Of a stretch of 30,282 nucleotides of DNA, positions 2,313-28,334 are shown piece by piece. Source of the stretch: a virus. Lineage: Duplodnaviria; Heunggongvirae; Uroviricota; Caudoviricetes. How positions within the stretch are numbered: the stretch's first letter is position 1; each line of letters begins with the position of its first letter. Position numbers and translations under genes: made by a program. Where the stretch lies: IMG/VR virus record IMGVR_UViG_2671181050_000003. One strand, 5' to 3'. The notes under the pieces are model-generated. The model ran no database searches. It saw only the letters and a list, made by a program, of their open reading frames with translations, and was not told the DNA's origin.

Positions 2313-2959
2313 ATTCCACCTCCGTTAAACACCTTCTTGCGGGCAGACAATGCACTGTCTGCACCCTGTTTAATCCCGAGCTGCTCAACAAAACTCTGAT
2401 AATGTTGTGCTGCCAGTCCTGACTCTGCACCACCGGCTGCATCCTTGCTGAATGCACGAAACAACATCCAGTCAACCAGCGGGTTAACATAAGCCTCTTC
2501 CAGCGGTACAGGCGTGTCATCATCCTGCGTCAGAACATACACCGCCTCCGGAATGCGGCTGACCACAGCATCAACACTCACAGCCTCCTCCGGTGCCGGA
2601 AACAGCCAGAACACGCGCGGGGCAAGGTCACTGCTGATAAAGCATTCCGGTTTCCCCCTCAGCATGTGCCAGTCGGGATACTGTGCATCAAGCACCTCAC
2701 GGGATTGCGGTTTTATAGCACTACCATCGCTGAGGCATATCACGTCAAGAAGCTGTATTGCGCCATCAGGCAAAGTCTGACGTGCACCAGGAACACAATT
2801 CAGCGTCTCCAGACTTGCGCCTGCATCCGGCCTTGCCAGAATCACCGCCCGCACAGCATCATTGTAATAATCACACAGCTCAGCCAGAGGCCAGCGCACC
2901 ATCATCGGGTCAACCAGTTGCGTGTTCACTCGTCCGATGATTTCAGTAATCGTCGTCAT
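2309..2959 (-). CDS. Hypothetical virion structural protein (216 aa)
   Basis: Start and stop codons overlap neighbouring genes (translational coupling) between the head genes and the tail fiber; no motif recognised. Confidence 0.55.
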
Positions 2960-3564
2960 CAGTAAAACCTTTGTCTGCGGACAGGATTGCGGTATGAGGA
3001 GTACGGACTTGTCGCCAGTGTGTCGCGATATGCCCGACGGATACCCTCAGAAAACAGCACAGAGAAATACTGTGCGCGCGACGGGTCTGACCATGAAACC
3101 CCGGTCTGCATGAACAACCGTTCAAGCGCCCCTGCAGCCACTTCTTCAGACCATGCCCGCAGTTCATCCTGCACCTGACGGCTCCCTGCTTTCGGAGCAA
3201 CGGCATAAAGCACACTCACCTCTCCGGGCGAACAGGCAAAATGCATTACCCGCCCCGGGCGGATTTCCACATCCTGACCACCAACGCTAACCACAAAACT
3301 GTTCTCCGCTTCTGCAAGAGCAACCTGTTCTCTTTCCTGCGCCTGCTGTGCCTGCCGCAACTGCTCATCCTGTTGTTGCTTTTTGAGCACACCATCAAGC
3401 TCTTCATGACGAACCCAGACATCCGGAAAGGCCAGCAACTGCCAGGCAAGCGCGCTGTCAACATGCACCGGCTCAAGACGCGGAAACAGTGTACGACTGC
3501 CGGTAAGGGTATCCTTTTTCACGGGTTTGGGGCCGATATAGACAACGGCAATTTTCTCGCTCAT
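2959..3564 (-). CDS. Hypothetical virion structural protein (201 aa)
   Basis: GGGGAA ribosome-binding site upstream of the ATG; Gln-rich central coiled-coil-like segment; position in the structural operon. Confidence 0.55.
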   Translation of the reverse strand: MSEKIAVVYIGPKPVKKDTLTGSRTLFPRLEPVHVDSALAWQLLAFPDVWVRHEELDGVLKKQQQDEQLRQAQQAQEREQVALAEAENSFVVSVGGQDVEIRPGRVMHFACSPGEVSVLYAVAPKAGSRQVQDELRAWSEEVAAGALERLFMQTGVSWSDPSRAQYFSVLFSEGIRRAYRDTLATSPYSSYRNPVRRQRFY

Positions 3565-3578
3565 ATAATTCCCCGGAT

Positions 3579-3601
3579 AAAAAAGCCCGCATGACGCGGG
3601 C
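3579..3601 (-). terminator. Hairpin terminator between the 130-aa and 201-aa genes
   Basis: GCCCGC/GCGGGC stem followed by a T-run on the minus strand. Confidence 0.4.
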
Positions 3602-3614
3602 CGGAAGGTTTATA

Positions 3615-4007
3615 TCAGTATCCCACTACGGTATAACGCAGCAGAACATTCAGGGTACCGGTCGCAGCAGCTGTCTTAATGGTGACCGTAACCAGCTCTC
3701 CATCACTCTGTGTGGTGTACGGCTCCACTGGCACATATTTAGCAAAGCTGGCAGTTACTGCACCACTGTCACCAATGAGCTCATGCTTGCCAGATTTAAC
3801 GCTGACGGTCGCCGTACCACCAAGACCACCTTTTGAAATCAGTTGGATCCCATTAATGCGAACGCCAGTCGGCAGTGAGAGAAGATTAATAACGGTTTCC
3901 TGTTCGGCAGCATTCACTGTAAACACACCTTCTGCCACCGACTCATTACCATGCGTACCTGAATAAACCCGCTCACTCAGTGACGGAGCAAGGATAGTCT
4001 TTGCCAT
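3615..4007 (-). CDS. Hypothetical protein (130 aa), possibly a head decoration or accessory structural protein
   Basis: AGGAG ribosome-binding site; Thr/Val/Gly-rich beta-type composition; sits directly after the capsid gene and is bracketed by hairpin terminators on both sides. Confidence 0.55.
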   Translation of the reverse strand: MAKTILAPSLSERVYSGTHGNESVAEGVFTVNAAEQETVINLLSLPTGVRINGIQLISKGGLGGTATVSVKSGKHELIGDSGAVTASFAKYVPVEPYTTQSDGELVTVTIKTAAATGTLNVLLRYTVVGY

Positions 4008-15817: not shown

Positions 15818-16018
15818 TATTCCTCCCGGCAGGGATAGTGTATGCAATCAAGATAAGGTGCGGGCTGACGTCAGTCATGGACAAGGGTTCAGAAACAGGA
15901 GGATGACTACAGCCCGCAATACGAAAAAGACCATACAGTTGCGCAGAGTGATTACTATCAGGTATTATTCGCCAGCTGAAAATTGATCACTTCACGTTTT
16001 GTTGTTTATTCCTTGCCA

Positions 16019-16047: not shown

Positions 16048-16054
16048 ATCCAAC

Positions 16055-16300
16055 AAGAAAGCCCCTCCGGAGAGGGGCTGGAGAGTAGCGCTATGTACCG
16101 TTCATGCATGGTGCAGGGTGCCTCCCGGTGAGTTCAGTATCAGCACCTGAACCCGCACCAGAAAGGATAAGGGGTGTGACCAAACACCTGTCGCTGATAT
16201 GCCCCTCCGCACAGGGGGATTCACCATGCCATATTTTTTTAACAAACTTCCCGCTGGCCAGACAATAATCGCCAGCCTGAATTGTGAGTAACGTGGCATT
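16055..16300 (-). repeat. Repeat unit A of an ORF-free tandem family, ending in a hairpin terminator (16061..16079)
   Basis: Shares conserved blocks with unit B (aaagcccctccggagaggggctg, catggtgc.agggtgcctcccggt, gggggattcacca, atttttaacaaa, gccagacaat, aattgtgag). Confidence 0.6.
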
Positions 16301-16324: not shown

Positions 16325-16534
16325 TAAAAAGGCCCGCCGGAGCGAGCCTGGAAGGATAGCGGTCATGTGATGCCGGTTTCCCGGTAACTCAGCATCGGTA
16401 TCTGAGTCAACGTTTTCTCTACTGGGTCATTTCCGATACGTTCCGCCTTCCGGCAGACTTTCATCACGTCAGAAAATATAGCACCCTGAGTAACAGGACA
16501 GTACTCAGAATTCAGGAAACTGTGACACATCCTG
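16325..16534 (-). repeat. Diverged middle unit of the same family, with its own hairpin terminator (16330..16349)
   Basis: Opens with aaaggcccgccggagcgagcctgg...tagcggtcatg, parallel to the start of units A and B. Confidence 0.4.
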
Positions 16535-16790
16535 CACAGAAAAGCCCCTCCGGAGAGGGGCTGAAGTATAGCCTAATTTCTGTCTGTCGCATGGTGCCAG
16601 GTGCCTCCCGGTAAATTCAGCCTGGCTACTGAATTTGCATGTTCGCTGGATCATACACTTTGCCAGATGCCCCGCCGCTGAGGGGGATTCACCACGCGAT
16701 GCAATTTTTAACAAATTCTCCGGCAGCCAGACAATCATCAAGCTGTGGAATTGTGAGGTATTTAAAAATTTCGCAGCCTCTTGCCACCCG
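16535..16790 (-). repeat. Repeat unit B, ending in a hairpin terminator (16544..16561 plus T-run)
   Basis: See unit A; perfect GCCCCTC/GAGGGGC stem followed by TTTTCTGTG on the minus strand. Confidence 0.6.
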
Positions 16791-19639: not shown

Positions 19640-20341
19640 TCAGAATTCAAATTGTCTTGCCCGCAGGCTTTTCAGCATTGGCATGGCCCGCTGGATAACG
19701 GAACTTGACATGTCGAGACGTGTTACCTCCCTTAGTAGCGCGTCTCTGTTCTTCGTCACCATGTAGATGGTCTCAAACGCAATGTCATACAGCTTGTTCG
19801 TGTATGAGGAGTTCAGCTCTTTCATTATGGGGTACAGCTGCTTGCTAAGGTCCTGGGCTTTTTCCATCCAGAGTTGCATGTAGCAAAGGAGGATGATTTC
19901 CTCGGCTGTGAATTGTGGCTGAATCTGCGGCTGCTGTTCGGTTGGTGCTGTTTTTCCCTGGCTGAAATAGCAGTCTTCCAGTTTTTCGAACACTTCCCAC
20001 GCCTGATCGGTTTCGAGCATTTTTGCGTGACGGGCTGCGCCGCGTTCTGTCCAGAGGATGAGGGAGCGAACATTGCGGGCGATTTTCACAGAGTAACTTT
20101 CTGTTACCTCGCGGCTAACAGACTCGCTTAAAGATAGTCTGTGCTTAAACTCACGTAGTTCATTCCCTTCCAACTTAAAGAAATGTTTTCCCTGTACAAA
20201 TCGCGCAGAGTTACGGGAAAAATTCATTTTTATATTGACTGTTTCAGTGCCATACAATTGCGCCAATAATTCTGTAGTAATTACGGGGATCTGGTTGTAG
20301 GCAATTGGGGAAAGAGTTTCAACGGAAATTTGAGTCGCCAT
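19640..20341 (-). CDS. Phage antirepressor / Roi-like DNA-binding protein (233 aa)
   Basis: N-terminal ORF6N/KilA-N-like segment (ELLAQLYGTE...NFSRNSARFVQGKHFFKLEG) plus a C-terminal helical domain; position between the replication and nin genes. Confidence 0.6.
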   Translation of the reverse strand: MATQISVETLSPIAYNQIPVITTELLAQLYGTETVNIKMNFSRNSARFVQGKHFFKLEGNELREFKHRLSLSESVSREVTESYSVKIARNVRSLILWTERGAARHAKMLETDQAWEVFEKLEDCYFSQGKTAPTEQQPQIQPQFTAEEIILLCYMQLWMEKAQDLSKQLYPIMKELNSSYTNKLYDIAFETIYMVTKNRDALLREVTRLDMSSSVIQRAMPMLKSLRARQFEF

Positions 20342-20609
20342 GACAACGCCCTCTGGTTGATGAATTTAACTATCACCACCGTCAGGTGCAAATCTTTGGG
20401 TGGTGAGACGTACAGGGTTTGCACTACCGGATCAACCAACCGGCGAGCCTTTCGGCTCCCCCATACGCCCCACCATAATTCAGATGTGCGTGTGCTTACG
20501 ACAACAAAAAACACGCTCGCGGCGTGTGTCTGTCGCGGTTGAATATCCGGGGTGCAAATCCCGACGCCAGATTTTGCTGGCGTGCGAAGAATATAATCCC
20601 GGATATGTG

Positions 20610-25269: not shown

Positions 25270-25695
25270 TTAGTGCATCACCACAGCATTCCCTGCCGGG
25301 CCGCCGCGATTCATCTGGTCATACAAAACAACCGCTGACGCAACAAAATCATCGACATCCTTCACCAGCCGATCCCTCCGTTCGACGATCTCACGGTAAT
25401 ATTCAGAACTGTGGCTGCGCATACGGGCCACTAGCAAAGGCGGCATCGCCTTTTCGATCGCCGGTAACAGAGCCTGCATTTTTTCAACAGCATCAGGGGT
25501 GTCTTTATCCAGCCAACGGAAAATTTTCTGGGTATTACGGGCCAGGGCTTCCGGATGGCTGTCGTCATACAGTTCCGGGAACGTCATTCCCAGCTCGAAA
25601 TACGCTTTGGTAATTTTCGCAGCCGGCACTTTTTCGCCGTCCGGATGCGCCCAGACATTCATCGCCATGCGGATGTGTTCATGCTTGATTTTCAT
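25270..25695 (-). CDS. YdaT-like protein (141 aa)
   Basis: N-terminus MKIKHEHI matches my recollection of the Rac prophage YdaT; AGGAG ribosome-binding site; immediately downstream of the Cro-like gene. Confidence 0.6.
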   Translation of the reverse strand: MKIKHEHIRMAMNVWAHPDGEKVPAAKITKAYFELGMTFPELYDDSHPEALARNTQKIFRWLDKDTPDAVEKMQALLPAIEKAMPPLLVARMRSHSSEYYREIVERRDRLVKDVDDFVASAVVLYDQMNRGGPAGNAVVMH

Positions 25696-25960
25696 GAATC
25701 AAGCTCCTAGAAAGTGGTTGTGTTAACGTTTTGGTATCTTCCAGCTCGGGCCAAATATTCATCCAATCAAAAGGCCTTAGTTGCTGACGTGTAACTTCAC
25801 CATTACTGGCTCGCTCAATAAGGACACATAACGATGCCCCTAACACTTGACCTTTACTCAATGCCTTTCTTAGATAACCGATGCTGGTACCACACTCGCA
25901 TGCAAACATACGCTGTTCATCTGACGAAAGAGAATTGAGAAATATTCTTAATTCTTCCAT
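25679..25960 (-). CDS. Cro-like / YdaS-family helix-turn-helix regulator (93 aa)
   Basis: AAGGAG ribosome-binding site; divergent from the repressor gene across an operator-rich intergenic region. Confidence 0.6.
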   Translation of the reverse strand: MEELRIFLNSLSSDEQRMFACECGTSIGYLRKALSKGQVLGASLCVLIERASNGEVTRQQLRPFDWMNIWPELEDTKTLTQPLSRSLIHENQA

Positions 25961-25989
25961 AGCTACTCCTTAGTAAACACAGCAAAGAA

Positions 25990-26067
25990 TACCTACAGGT
26001 AAACAAAAGTCAATACCCACAGGTTGTTTACCTTGCGGTAATCGCATCTATTATTTACCTATGGACA
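25990..26067. promoter_or_regulatory. Operator cluster: four TACC-N4-GGTA sites in the cro/repressor intergenic region (OR-like)
   Basis: tacctacaggta (25990), tacccacaggtt (26014), taccttgcggta (26029), tacctatggac (26056, overlapping the repressor ATG). Confidence 0.5.
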
Positions 26068-26480
26068 AATATGAATTTAGACGACAGCAACTCATCAAAA
26101 TTCGTGATGAGAAATGCGATGGTAAAGCGGTTAACGTGGCCAGAAAGATCGGGCGCGAGCCTTCTTATGTATCAAGAATGTTGTACCCAGAGGGGAAAAA
26201 GGGAAAAAAACGGATCGCTGATGATATGGTGGAGATTATCGAAGAGTCCTTTGGGTTACCCCGGGGATGGATGGATGGTATCGTTTCATCATCAACGAAC
26301 ACAGCCTCCAGTTATGAAACAAGGGTTCTAACGCCACGACAACGTATTTTTTTAGATCTCTTAGACGAACTGCCAGAAAGTGAAGCGGATAAATTATTAA
26401 AAACTCTTGAAGAGAAAAAACAGTATTACAATATGATCTACGAAGAAATCCGTAAAAAGAAAGCACAAAACACATCATAG
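26061..26480 (+). CDS. Prophage repressor (CI-like helix-turn-helix protein, 139 aa)
   Basis: Helix-turn-helix GKAVNVARKIGREPSYVSRM; divergent from the Cro-like gene; no ribosome-binding site before the ATG; operators on both sides. Confidence 0.65.
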   Translation: MDKYEFRRQQLIKIRDEKCDGKAVNVARKIGREPSYVSRMLYPEGKKGKKRIADDMVEIIEESFGLPRGWMDGIVSSSTNTASSYETRVLTPRQRIFLDLLDELPESEADKLLKTLEEKKQYYNMIYEEIRKKKAQNTS

Positions 26481-26522
26481 CTCACCAAACAACTAGTCAC
26501 CAGTTAAGACACCGCAAAAATT

Positions 26523-26559
26523 TACCCATGGGTATTTACTTTTTAAATACCTATGGGTA
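26523..26559. promoter_or_regulatory. Two palindromic operators downstream of the repressor gene (OL-like)
   Basis: TACCCATGGGTA (perfect 12-bp palindrome, 26523) and TACCTATGGGTA (26548), 25 bp apart. Confidence 0.45.
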
Positions 26560-26745
26560 TCCTTATTTTCATACCAACCCACCCCGCCCCACAGAATGCA
26601 GGGCAATACTTCGAGTTACCAGGCAGTGGTCAGGGGTTAAGTAGCCAGCCCGAGGCGTAAGAACATGACGGCAGGGTTCAACTTTAATAACTATGCAGCA
26701 GGTTTTTGTTCCGCTACCCCGGCGTTAAGGGGAAATGAGGTCAGC

Positions 26746-26901
26746 ATGGATACTATCGATCTTGGCAACAGCGAATCTCTGGTATGTGGCGTGTTCCCCA
26801 ACCAGGACGGTACGTTCACCGCGATGACGTATACCAAAAGCAAAACGTTTAAAACCGAAAATGGTGCCCGTCGCTGGCTGGAAAGAAACTCAGGTGAGTG
26901 A
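26746..26901 (+). CDS. Small protein, YdfA-like (51 aa)
   Basis: Internal ATG of track ORF 26665..26901 preceded by GAGGT; size and position match the first small gene of the Qin dicB operon. Confidence 0.5.
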   Translation: MDTIDLGNSESLVCGVFPNQDGTFTAMTYTKSKTFKTENGARRWLERNSGE

Positions 26902-28276: not shown

Positions 28277-28334
28277 TTTCTGGTGACATTTGGCGGTATC
28301 AGTTTTACTCCGTGACTGCTCTGCCGCCCTTTTT
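28277..28334 (+). ncRNA. dicF: DicF-like small RNA
   Basis: tttctggtgacatttggcggtatcagttttactccgtgactgctctgccgcccttttt matches the E. coli DicF sequence as I recall it with about one substitution; followed by dicB-like and ydfD-like genes as in Qin. Confidence 0.65.

Follow-up and report, generated by a model that had tools for sequence, protein, structure and literature searches.

The window analyzed here, the whole 30,282-nt stretch of virus record IMGVR_UViG_2671181050_000003, carries two divergent genes separated by 100 bp (intergenic region, 25961-26060). The plus strand encodes a 139-amino-acid repressor (26061-26480) with an N-terminal helix-turn-helix and a DicA-like C-terminus. The minus strand encodes a 93-amino-acid Cro-like protein of the YdaS family (25960-25679; Pfam YdaS_toxin, E 9e-6; PHROG 35), whose Shine-Dalgarno sequence AAGGAG (25967-25972 in plus-strand coordinates) lies 6 nt before its ATG. 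A perfect copy of the published YdaT site, TTGATT-N6-AATCAA, is found at 25685-25702. Past the repressor, 26578-26901 on the plus strand holds the leader and first gene (DUF1391 by Pfam, ydfA-like, ATG at 26746) of an early-left operon that includes DicF (28278-28329, Rfam) and that, as annotated in matching genomes, reaches dicB in near-identical E. coli prophages.

The repressor, annotated only as a "hypothetical protein" (WP_000362153.1), has a modular build. A helix-turn-helix DNA-binding module without a Pfam model spans residues 1 to about 75; a low-confidence linker (residues 77-86) and a DicA-like helical hairpin (residues 89-137) follow (AlphaFold model, pLDDT 83). Similarity to DicA is confined to 46-51 residues of the C-terminus (33% identity over 46, BLASTP E 2e-7); the N-terminus is unrelated to DicA, and the score with the NCBIfam DicA model, 24.5 bits, is below its cutoff of 101. 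A Pfam search of the protein gave no hit and thus no S24 peptidase domain. In a 14-sequence alignment, residues 1-75 are 65-84% identical, with the MDKYE N-terminus and the SYV-RM stretch invariant.

Candidate operators and promoters

The preliminary description placed TACC-N4-GGTA inverted repeats on both sides of the repressor gene, four in the intergenic region and two, one of them a perfect palindrome, just past the stop codon. Scanning the whole 30-kb window for TACCNNNNGGTA, with shuffled windows as the control, returned exact matches at 25990, 26029, 26523, and 26548, all inside one 570-bp stretch around the repressor open reading frame. Four copies against 0.14 expected, with four or more in none of 100 shuffles, put the motif above background; the 14 kb of flanking chromosome, the sole host stretch scanned, contained no exact site. 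About 70 copies would be expected by chance in a whole E. coli chromosome. Candidate sites were scored with a weight matrix (PWM) built only from relatives, for which the best scores in shuffled windows averaged 10.7 and reached at most 20.3, and the five sites that we accept scored 12.7-25.0. Both downstream sites and the palindrome were borne out. In the intergenic region, two perfect sites and one near-perfect site stood, and the fourth, over the repressor ATG, did not: it scores at chance level and is absent in relatives. Isolated near-matches at 15953 (TACTATCAGGTA, PWM 13.1), 25601, and 19409 lie away from the promoters of interest with scores within the shuffle maxima and were set aside as chance occurrences.

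The accepted sites fall on predicted promoters. On the minus strand, a PR-like promoter of cro (25986-26013) combines the -35 hexamer TTGACT (26013-26008), a 16-nt spacer, and the -10 hexamer TATTCT (25991-25986), for 9 of 12 matches in the promoter scan; its block TCAATACC (reverse complement GGTATTGA) is conserved in relatives. OR1 (TACCTACAGGTA, 25990-26001, exact, PWM 22.6) sits in the spacer of PR and overlaps its -10 by 2 nt, and OR2 (TACCCACAGGTT, 26014-26025, one mismatch in a degenerate right half, PWM 13.3) adjoins its -35. The PRM-like promoter on the plus strand (26027-26054) also has 9 of 12 matches, with TTTACC (26027-26032) and TATTAT (26049-26054) separated by 16 nt, and OR3 (TACCTTGCGGTA, 26029-26040, exact, PWM 12.7) overlaps its -35 and spacer. 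OR1 and OR2 are spaced by 24 bp and OR2 and OR3 by 15 bp, center to center.

The predicted PRM start is 26061, the seventh nucleotide after the -10 and the A of the repressor ATG, which places the center of OR2 at -41.5. No start codon precedes this ATG in the open reading frame, and none of GGAG, GAGG, AGGA, AAGG, or GGGG occurs 4 to 16 nt upstream of it, in keeping with the earlier statement that it lacks a ribosome-binding site. The -10 hexamer ends 6-7 nt before the repressor ATG in 27 of 35 related loci. This placement, together with the lack of a Shine-Dalgarno-like tetramer upstream of the window's ATG, supports the suggestion that the repressor is translated from a leaderless mRNA, as predicted from promoter geometry. 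The cI gene of lambda is a precedent with a mapped leaderless 5' end. For PaaR2 of CP-933P, a leaderless mRNA was established by 5' RACE mapping of the 5' end and by N-terminal sequencing (PMC8630535).

The downstream sites are OL2 (TACCCATGGGTA, 26523-26534, exact, PWM 25.0), the perfect palindrome, 42 bp after the repressor stop codon, and OL1 (TACCTATGGGTA, 26548-26559, exact, PWM 20.5). Their 25-bp spacing is like that of relatives, and the downstream pairs of about 30 relatives have a site in the same place as OL2. Between and over them we propose a plus-strand promoter PL, equivalent to dicBp (26535-26563), with TTTACT (26535-26540), a 17-nt spacer, TATCCT (26558-26563), and a predicted start near 26570-26571; OL2 is directly upstream of its -35 and OL1 overlaps its -10 by 2 nt. 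These hexamers match at 8 of 12 positions, below the threshold of the promoter scan, and PL was placed by position relative to relatives, in which a TTGACA-like hexamer directly follows the first downstream site and the -10 starts at the TA of the second. The PL -10 reads TATTCT in lineage variants, and Qin has TTGACC and TAATCT at the equivalent place.

Distribution of the sites among related loci

The sites were then compared across 41 genome loci of relatives (246 kb), with 43 loci compared for site layout. In 35 of the 41 genomes, a site lies near -32 from the ATG of the gene carrying the repressor module, with further sites near -72 and -47 in most of them. OR1 is kept at -71 to -75 in most relatives and OR3 at -32 to -35; equivalents of OR2 are found at -47 to -50 in 25 relatives, where the right half is degenerate as well (GGTT, GGGA, or GGTC). 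About 30 relatives carry a downstream pair of sites 24-26 bp apart around a promoter. Altogether, the 41 loci contain 114 exact sites against 3.7 expected. Of these, 59 fall in a 71-bp zone preceding the repressor ATG and 44 belong to downstream pairs, the remaining 11 being mostly downstream-pair members whose partner has one mismatch. The module and its sites extend over Enterobacterales, Aeromonas, Neisseria, Burkholderiales, and Xanthomonadales (Xanthomonas). The N-terminal module, joined here to a DicA-like tail, is joined to Peptidase_S24 (PF00717) in mEp043 cI and many others, and a YdaS-like Cro is divergent from the repressor in most of these loci. Among 80 near-identical viral contigs, the central 4 bp vary and TACC and GGTA are fixed; judged from sequence, variation confined in this way is the signature of a protein-binding site. 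Of 5426 complete E. coli genomes, 822 contain the 1.1-kb immunity region with a coverage of at least 80%.

Two prophages with another DNA-binding domain are informative. Tritos shares the C-terminal coding region of the repressor and, at near-identity, the DNA from window position 26578 onward; it has a different N-terminal domain and AGTACAT-type repeats at both the OR and OL places. Qin, with identity to the window from about 26708, has TTAG-N6-CTAA repeats around dicA at both places, with TTGACC and TAATCT between and over those downstream. There, repression of dicBp by DicA has been shown experimentally (PMC10448788). Since layout and flanks are shared while another DNA-binding domain comes with other repeats at both places, the downstream pair appears to be an OL/PL-type operator rather than merely a terminator. 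The OR/OL-like layout put forward in the preliminary description is accordingly supported: the motif at fixed offsets and the promoter-flanking downstream pair follow the DNA-binding domain, and the motif is swapped with it. We consider it very likely that the TACC-N4-GGTA sites serve as operators in the immunity switch, lambda-like in layout, of a Qin/Rac-like lambdoid prophage.

Alternative readings of the sites

The downstream pair also has the makings of an RNA hairpin with a T-rich tail, which the preliminary description had overlooked. The terminator scan called a structure (26523-26569, plus strand; hairpin, 26523-26559) made up of OL2, OL1, and the TTTA/TAAA sequences beside them, with TCCTTATTTT as its tail. 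The 16-bp stem has only 5 G-C pairs and a 5-nt loop (-22.2 kcal/mol, z -6.8), and C and A residues break up the tail UCCUUAUUUU. A terminator function for the repressor transcript is possible. A genuine OL/PL operator could then also act through its RNA image to terminate the leaderless repressor transcript, or the bound repressor could form a roadblock, keeping maintenance transcription off the toxic dicF-dicB genes. All of the operator evidence applies to this reading, as do the hairpin energy and scan data, and the window lacks the separate terminator found in relatives with longer repressor operons. Against it, two neighboring palindromes could give rise to such a hairpin incidentally. In 19 lineage variants, 98.7% of cells are paired and one double compensatory change is seen, but this pairing was reached in 71 of 500 shuffles and is not significant; the flank changes (A to G opposite U) are of the kind that arises most often by mutation anyway, and the U-tract is imperfect. 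We lean against such a double role while regarding it as the most credible of the alternatives.

Less credible is a working operator at 26056-26067 (TACCTATGGACA), the fourth intergenic site, through which the repressor would block its own leaderless start. This site spans the ATG and keeps an intact TTTACC half with a YRYR center, it is unvaried in 80 close relatives, and there are precedents in RacR O3, which contains the racR ATG (PMC9638921), and in a Qin site ending 1 nt before the dicA ATG. However, it has only one intact half-site, and its two mismatches, both in the GGTA half, hit positions invariant in OR1, in the OL sites, and in most OR3 sites of relatives. It scores 10.8, whereas the best scores of shuffled windows average 10.7, and no counterpart exists among the 43 related loci. 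The invariance is itself uninformative because conserved codons (Met-Asp-Lys) determine the right half and the neighboring sequence is equally invariant. The fourth intergenic site lacks support, and we consider its use as an operator unlikely.

Much more improbable is the view that the downstream pair is nothing but the intrinsic terminator of the repressor gene, unbound by the repressor and resembling the operators because any pair of palindromes makes a hairpin. The scan call and folding energy would suit it, the stem runs 4 bp past the 12-mers, no other hairpin follows the stop codon (26480) before the next operon begins, and pairing is largely kept among the lineage variants. Yet the downstream 12-mers are the exact OR motif, and about 30 relatives show a TTGACA-like -35 between the two sites and a -10 that the pair overlaps. 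The hairpin is unconserved in the wider relatives, where the downstream sites are often not mutually complementary, and some relatives (e.g., mEp043 and loci L020 and L043) have a separate upstream terminator. In Tritos and Qin, moreover, the segment changes with the DNA-binding domain between two homologous flanks. Covariation is not significant in either direction, and the tail is broken. This reading was rejected on comparative grounds.

Finally, the sites might be recognized by the YdaS-like Cro or another factor rather than by the 139-amino-acid protein. We infer the assignment to the repressor from co-occurrence; Cro is co-conserved with the sites in most loci, and co-occurrence alone therefore does not separate the two proteins. 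Recognition by Cro or another factor in place of the repressor nevertheless has very little probability, given that in Klebsiella loci lacking a YdaS-like divergent gene the -73, -33, and downstream sites still accompany the N-terminal domain, that OR3 and the PRM -35 coincide in a single sequence whose distance from the repressor ATG is fixed, and that, to our knowledge, repressor and Cro use common operators in all lambdoid switches studied. PaaR2 and YdaS have operators in common (PMC8630535).

Proposed switch and comparison with known systems

For the immunity switch that we favor, we infer the identity of the binder, the order of occupancy, activation, the leaderless start, termination, and the route of induction as follows. 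Dimers of the repressor would bind an approximately 14-bp dyad, tTACC-YRYR-GGTAa, through the N-terminal helix-turn-helix, and the YdaS-like Cro probably binds the same sites. By analogy with lambda, occupancy of OR1 and OR2 would cover the -10, spacer, and -35 edge of PR and turn off the leftward cro promoter, and OR3, within the repressor promoter, would limit repressor synthesis at high occupancy. OR2, centered at -41.5, has the position from which lambda CI activates PRM, and transcription from PRM would start at the A of the ATG to give a leaderless repressor mRNA. OL2 and OL1 would bracket PL (TTTACT-17-TATCCT), which is predicted to drive the ydfA-dicF-dicB early-left operon as the equivalent of lambda PL and Qin dicBp. 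Within the repressor transcript, the OL pair would form a strong hairpin with a U-rich tail that may stop the transcript. The occupancy logic may differ from that of lambda because OR2 and OR3 are 15 bp apart, against 23-24 bp.

Since the repressor is DicA-like at its C-terminus and lacks an S24 peptidase domain, we expect induction to proceed through an antirepressor and not through RecA-stimulated self-cleavage. The candidate antirepressor is an Ant homologue at 19640-20341 (PHROG 377, E 5e-83), preceded by C4 and isrK RNAs (whole region, 19640-20583). The window contains no homologue of Rem and no convincing LexA box, with only low-quality CTG-N10-CAG matches.

The kind of mechanism is not new. 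A lambda-like switch is ordinary, and its DNA specificity is what had not been written down before, as far as the open-access literature shows: searches for the motif and for mEp043 found no earlier description of these operators, nor a paper on those of mEp043 and CharmingMan. Naming them would allow annotators to recognize this immunity type, to predict homo-immune prophages (e.g., with mEp043), and to locate the promoter controlling the toxic dicF-dicB genes in these strains. The family is also a natural experiment in which one DNA-binding module and operator geometry are combined with varied induction domains, and the conserved weak OR2 and leaderless start can be used to test the reach of the lambda logic. 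More tentatively, a single cassette (the helix-turn-helix without a Pfam model, the YdaS-like Cro, TACC-N4-GGTA operators with a weak OR2, and the leaderless promoter) may have kept to one DNA specificity in bacteria as distant as E. coli, Neisseria, Burkholderiales, and Xanthomonas while its sensor domain was swapped repeatedly (S24 peptidase, DicA-like hairpin, and others), the OL pair of the compact E. coli version being also recruited as a terminator or roadblock of the leaderless repressor transcript. If so, a conjecture we would not bet on, the same 37 bp would serve as DNA operator, promoter frame, and RNA terminator.

In outline, the layout resembles that of lambda. There too, the repressor and cro genes diverge with about 100 bp between them, a pair of back-to-back promoters is covered by three dyad sites, OR1 and OR2 are spaced by 24 bp, one site is centered near position -42 relative to the start of the maintenance promoter, transcription from that promoter begins at the ATG and yields a leaderless mRNA (predicted here), and the motif recurs downstream of the repressor operon, at the early-left promoter. 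The lambda operators are, however, 17 bp long instead of 12-14 bp, OR2 and OR3 are 23-24 bp apart instead of 15, and OL has three sites instead of two. Lambda CI carries an S24 self-cleavage domain, whereas the 139-amino-acid repressor has none and shows no sequence similarity to CI, and the OL pair here lies 42 bp past the repressor stop without rex-type cargo or a separate terminator.

Rac (RacR/YdaS; PMC9638921) shares the ydaS, ydaT, ydaU, and ydaV layout, three intergenic inverted-repeat operators, and a repressor ATG within or beside an operator. RacR operators read (T/A)TAGGC-N3-GCCTA(T/A), and homology of the repressor to RacR was rejected (BLASTP E above 2, with a different operator motif). 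CP-933P (PaaR2/YdaS/YdaT; PMC8630535, PMC9986795) likewise has a YdaS-like Cro, a YdaT-like CII, an intergenic region of similar size (97 bp), and OR- and OL-type operator clusters. In contrast, PaaR2 is described as starting with MQKKE and as using 18-bp palindromic operators with the half-site GTTTAGTAA, and it is followed by paaA2-parE2 toxin-antitoxin genes that are absent here.

A sequence search of the repressor against solved structures gave nothing significant, and Z-alpha winged-helix matches (E ~0.08) were discarded. The best structural match of the modeled N-terminal domain, which also resembles other XRE-type helix-turn-helix proteins, is Rep of Salmonella phage SPC32H (5d50, 5d4z; 72 columns, rmsd 1.3, 26% identity). 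The match is weak (Foldseek E 2e-3 to 7e-3) and has no sequence-level counterpart; Rep was crystallized together with an antirepressor protein, according to the title of entry 5d50.

Qin (DicA/DicC/dicBp; PMC10448788) has the same gene order (cro-like, repressor, DUF1391 ydfA, dicF, dicB), a short non-cleavable repressor with a homologous C-terminus, operators on either side of a promoter in the interval from the repressor stop to ydfA, and DNA identity from just upstream of ydfA. DicA differs in its HTH_3-type N-terminus and its TTAG-N6-CTAA repeats, and Qin has the antirepressor Rem. The mEp043 cI and CharmingMan repressors (PV340537, PP925830) differ in being S24 peptidase-type proteins of 222-228 amino acids, and mEp043 also encodes an N antiterminator, terminates transcription separately ahead of OL, and carries an additional TTACC-N14-GGTAA repeat. 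Both nevertheless share with the window an N-terminal domain that is 65% identical over residues 1-86, three sites at equal offsets, an early-left pair 25-26 bp apart, and a homologous Cro.

Putative operator sites around the repressor gene

A motif search of the 30,282-bp window returned four exact matches to TACCNNNNGGTA, at 25990, 26029, 26523 and 26548, against 0.14 expected from shuffles (0 of 100 shuffles reached four). Allowing one mismatch added a site at 26014 (TACCCACAGGTT) in the same region, together with eight scattered matches consistent with background. The sites surround the 139-aa repressor ORF (26061-26480, + strand), from which a 93-aa Cro-like gene of the YdaS family diverges (25960-25679); the genes after this cro are YdaT/CII-like, O-like (replication) and DnaC-like. 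The preliminary description had proposed four sites in the cro/repressor spacer and two past the repressor stop. Both downstream sites (OL2, 26523; OL1, 26548) are exact, and three intergenic sites stand (OR1, 25990; OR2, 26014, with one mismatch; OR3, 26029). However, the fourth, TACCTATGGACA at 26056-26067, has two mismatches, both in its GGTA half, and that half is also dictated by conserved Met-Asp-Lys codons. We therefore consider five sites solid and this one doubtful.

To test the operator reading by comparison, one genome per species was scanned, yielding 41 loci encoding the repressor's DNA-binding domain in Enterobacterales, Aeromonas, Neisseria, Burkholderiales, Nitrosomonadales and Xanthomonadales. 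Of the 41 loci, 35 have an OR3-type site near -32 relative to the ATG; most also show sites near -72 and -47, and the right half of the middle one is almost always degenerate (GGTT, GGGA or GGTC). Exact sites numbered 114 in these 246 kb (3.7 expected), with 59 in the 71-bp upstream zone, 44 in downstream pairs and most of the remaining 11 in downstream pairs in which the other site has one mismatch. Phages mEp043 and CharmingMan match the window in their cI-cro spacers, with these three sites at identical offsets, and each has a downstream pair spaced 25-26 bp in front of the early-left genes, in mEp043 just upstream of N. The consensus is tTACC-YRYR-GGTAa, and a weight matrix built from the relatives alone scored the window sites at 25.0 (26523), 22.6 (25990), 20.5 (26548), 13.3 (26014) and 12.7 (26029), while site 26056, at 10.8, equalled the average of the best scores from shuffled windows. 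In 80 IMG/VR viral contigs that encode an identical DNA-binding domain, changes concentrate in the central four bases and TACC and GGTA are fixed, as is usual for sites bound by dimers.

Two variations were also observed. The OR3 equivalent of 26029-26040 reads TACCTTGCAGTA (GGTA to AGTA) in about one quarter of these otherwise near-identical prophages; this natural variant is expected to make negative autoregulation weaker. In mEp043 (3553-3576) and four other loci (L010, L012, L015 and L021), the OL pair is preceded at a distance of about 20 bp by ATTACCTGAAAATTCAAGCAGGTAA, in which the TTACC/GGTAA half-sites of the operators stand 14 bp apart instead of 4 (one extra helical turn). The window lacks this type of repeat, which may represent a third OL site recognized with another geometry.

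Predicted intergenic promoters and a probable leaderless start

The promoter scan predicted a leftward cro promoter, PR (TTGACT-16-TATTCT, 26013-25986), with OR1 in its spacer and -10 and OR2 abutting its -35, and a rightward repressor promoter, PRM (TTTACC-16-TATTAT, 26027-26054), whose -35 is physically part of OR3. Taking transcription to start at the A of the repressor ATG, OR2 is centered at -41.5, the position from which lambda CI bound at OR2 contacts RNA polymerase at PRM. That A is the seventh base after the PRM -10, and the ORF has neither an upstream start codon nor a Shine-Dalgarno sequence before its ATG. Likewise, a -10-like hexamer ends 6-7 nt before an invariant ATG-GAY-AAR-TAY-GAR in 27 of 35 related loci. 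Given this geometry and the proven leaderless translation of lambda cI and of PaaR2 from the related CP-933P prophage (PMC8630535), the suggestion that the repressor mRNA may be leaderless is well supported as an inference.

At 25685-25702, the perfect inverted repeat TTGATTTTCATGAATCAA spans the end of cro and the start codon at which the YdaT/CII-like gene begins (ATG at 25695, - strand). It is the sole zero-mismatch match in the window to TTGATT-N6-AATCAA, the published binding consensus of CP-933P YdaT (PMC9986795), which suggests YdaT autoregulation or a PRE-like element.

The YdaS-like Cro is conserved along with the sites, so co-occurrence separates repressor from Cro as the binder only in part. 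In four Klebsiella loci, however, no Cro gene diverges from the repressor, yet the domain is present, as are the sites at -73, at -33 and downstream. A further argument for the repressor is that the -35 of its own promoter belongs to OR3. To our knowledge, repressor and Cro both use the operators in every studied lambdoid switch, and by analogy both probably do so here. PaaR2/YdaS provides a switch with both proteins on the operators (PMC8630535). In the Klebsiella loci (L005, L008, L009 and L011, ~2900-3960), the domain is fused to S24 (233-242 aa) and a terminator-like hairpin lies 5' of the gene; with just the -73, -33 and downstream sites, this version looks like a stand-alone autoregulated regulator more than a classic switch.

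The downstream pair

Three results argue that the downstream sites form an operator pair around a promoter. In about 30 relatives, a TTGACA-like hexamer directly follows the first site, and the final TA of the second starts a -10 (TATATT, TAATAT or TATTCT). A candidate early-left promoter, PL, was placed at the same positions in the window (-35 TTTACT, 26535-26540; -10 TATCCT, 26558-26563), in the order of its own PR: site, -35, 6-7 nt, site, -10. In Qin, the interval between dicA and ydfA is organized in the same way, but its repeats are TTAG-N6-CTAA, found again in the dicC-dicA spacer; the promoter of the dicA-ydfA interval, dicBp, is repressed by DicA (PMC10448788), and window and Qin turn identical just upstream of ydfA. 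Phage Tritos, whose repressor has a different N-terminal domain, has AGTACAT-type repeats in its OR as well as in the stretch that takes the place of 26480-26577; it shares the repressor C-terminal coding region and is near-identical to the window from 26578 onward. The segment with the pair is thus an island that varies in step with the DNA-binding domain.

The pair also forms a 16-bp hairpin followed by TCCTTATTTT (terminator scan, 26523-26559; -22.2 kcal/mol as RNA, z -6.8), and termination may coexist with operator function. There is no other terminator in the window between the repressor stop codon and PL, the stem reaches 4 bp beyond the operators, and 98.7% pairing is kept in lineage variants, although the covariation test was not significant (71 of 500 shuffles reached the observed pairing). 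A terminator rather than an operator, the rival reading raised by this hairpin, is opposed by the promoter hexamers, Qin and Tritos, by relatives whose two sites are often not mutually complementary, and by a separate GC-rich terminator upstream of the pair in mEp043, L020 and L043. The preliminary description therefore needs amendment at two points, the fourth intergenic site and this possible operator/terminator overlap.

The 170-nt early-left leader that follows (26578-26745) is almost identical in Tritos, although that phage differs in immunity. GC-rich dyads such as GCCCCACAGAATGCAGGGC occur in the leader, which has no Rfam match and could contain a nut-like or processing element.

Repressor domains, proposed switch and known systems

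The repressor, a "hypothetical protein" in RefSeq, has no Pfam match and no similarity to RacR. Its first ~75 residues are 65-84% identical to short repressors and to many 220-240-aa Peptidase_S24 proteins, including cI of lambdoid phage mEp043, and its last ~50 match DicA (NCBIfam partial match; BLASTP E 2e-7). The AlphaFold model (pLDDT 83) comprises an N-terminal helix bundle, a disordered linker (77-86) and a C-terminal helical hairpin, with closest PDB matches to the Rep repressor of a Salmonella phage crystallized with its antirepressor (5d50) and other XRE-type helix-turn-helix proteins. A 301-aa relative from a Neisseria sp. MAG (L029, 3001-3903) joins the MDKYE-type domain, a second canonical HTH_3 domain and Peptidase_S24, and is a repressor carrying two different DNA-binding domains.

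The region is 99.7% identical to prophages of many E. coli genomes and present in 822 of 5426 complete ones (coverage 80% or more). These prophages adjoin ompW and look complete (terminase, lysis genes, Q, int and xis). On the same strand, 3' of the repressor, lie a DUF1391 (ydfA-like) gene and DicF RNA (28278-28329), continued in near-identical E. coli prophages by dicB, ydfD, exonuclease, xis and int; Qin prophage has this order. The window also holds two full-length STnc100 sRNA copies ~280 bp apart (16049-16258 and 16534-16727, - strand; Rfam RF02076, 130 and 139 bits).

In the switch that we propose, repressor dimers in the lysogen would occupy the OR1/OR2 pair (24 bp apart, OR2 being intrinsically weak) as well as the OL1/OL2 pair (25 bp apart), shutting PR (cro-ydaT-replication) and PL (ydfA-dicF-dicB-exo-xis-int). 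The dimer at OR2 would stimulate the leaderless PRM, OR3 would cap the repressor level, and Cro would use these sites to the opposite effect. As the repressor has no S24 domain, induction should need an antirepressor. A 233-aa Ant homologue is encoded at 19640-20341 (- strand; PHROG 377, E 5e-83), with C4 antisense RNA (20396-20480) and isrK RNA (20506-20583) directly upstream. This P1/Gifsy-like Ant/C4/isrK module (19640-20583) could be the induction route for this non-cleavable repressor; neither a Rem homologue nor a clear LexA box was found in the window.

In the open-access literature, neither the motif nor the mEp043 operators were found to be described. The OR/OL-like layout first proposed is supported, with the same motif at conserved offsets in relatives and around the proposed early-left promoter, and other motifs accompanying other domains. 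Architecturally, the switch matches those of lambda, CP-933P, Qin and Rac. Its novelty lies in the assignment of a specific operator motif and promoter set to an unannotated, widespread repressor domain, and in the breadth of domain/operator conservation under different sensor domains.
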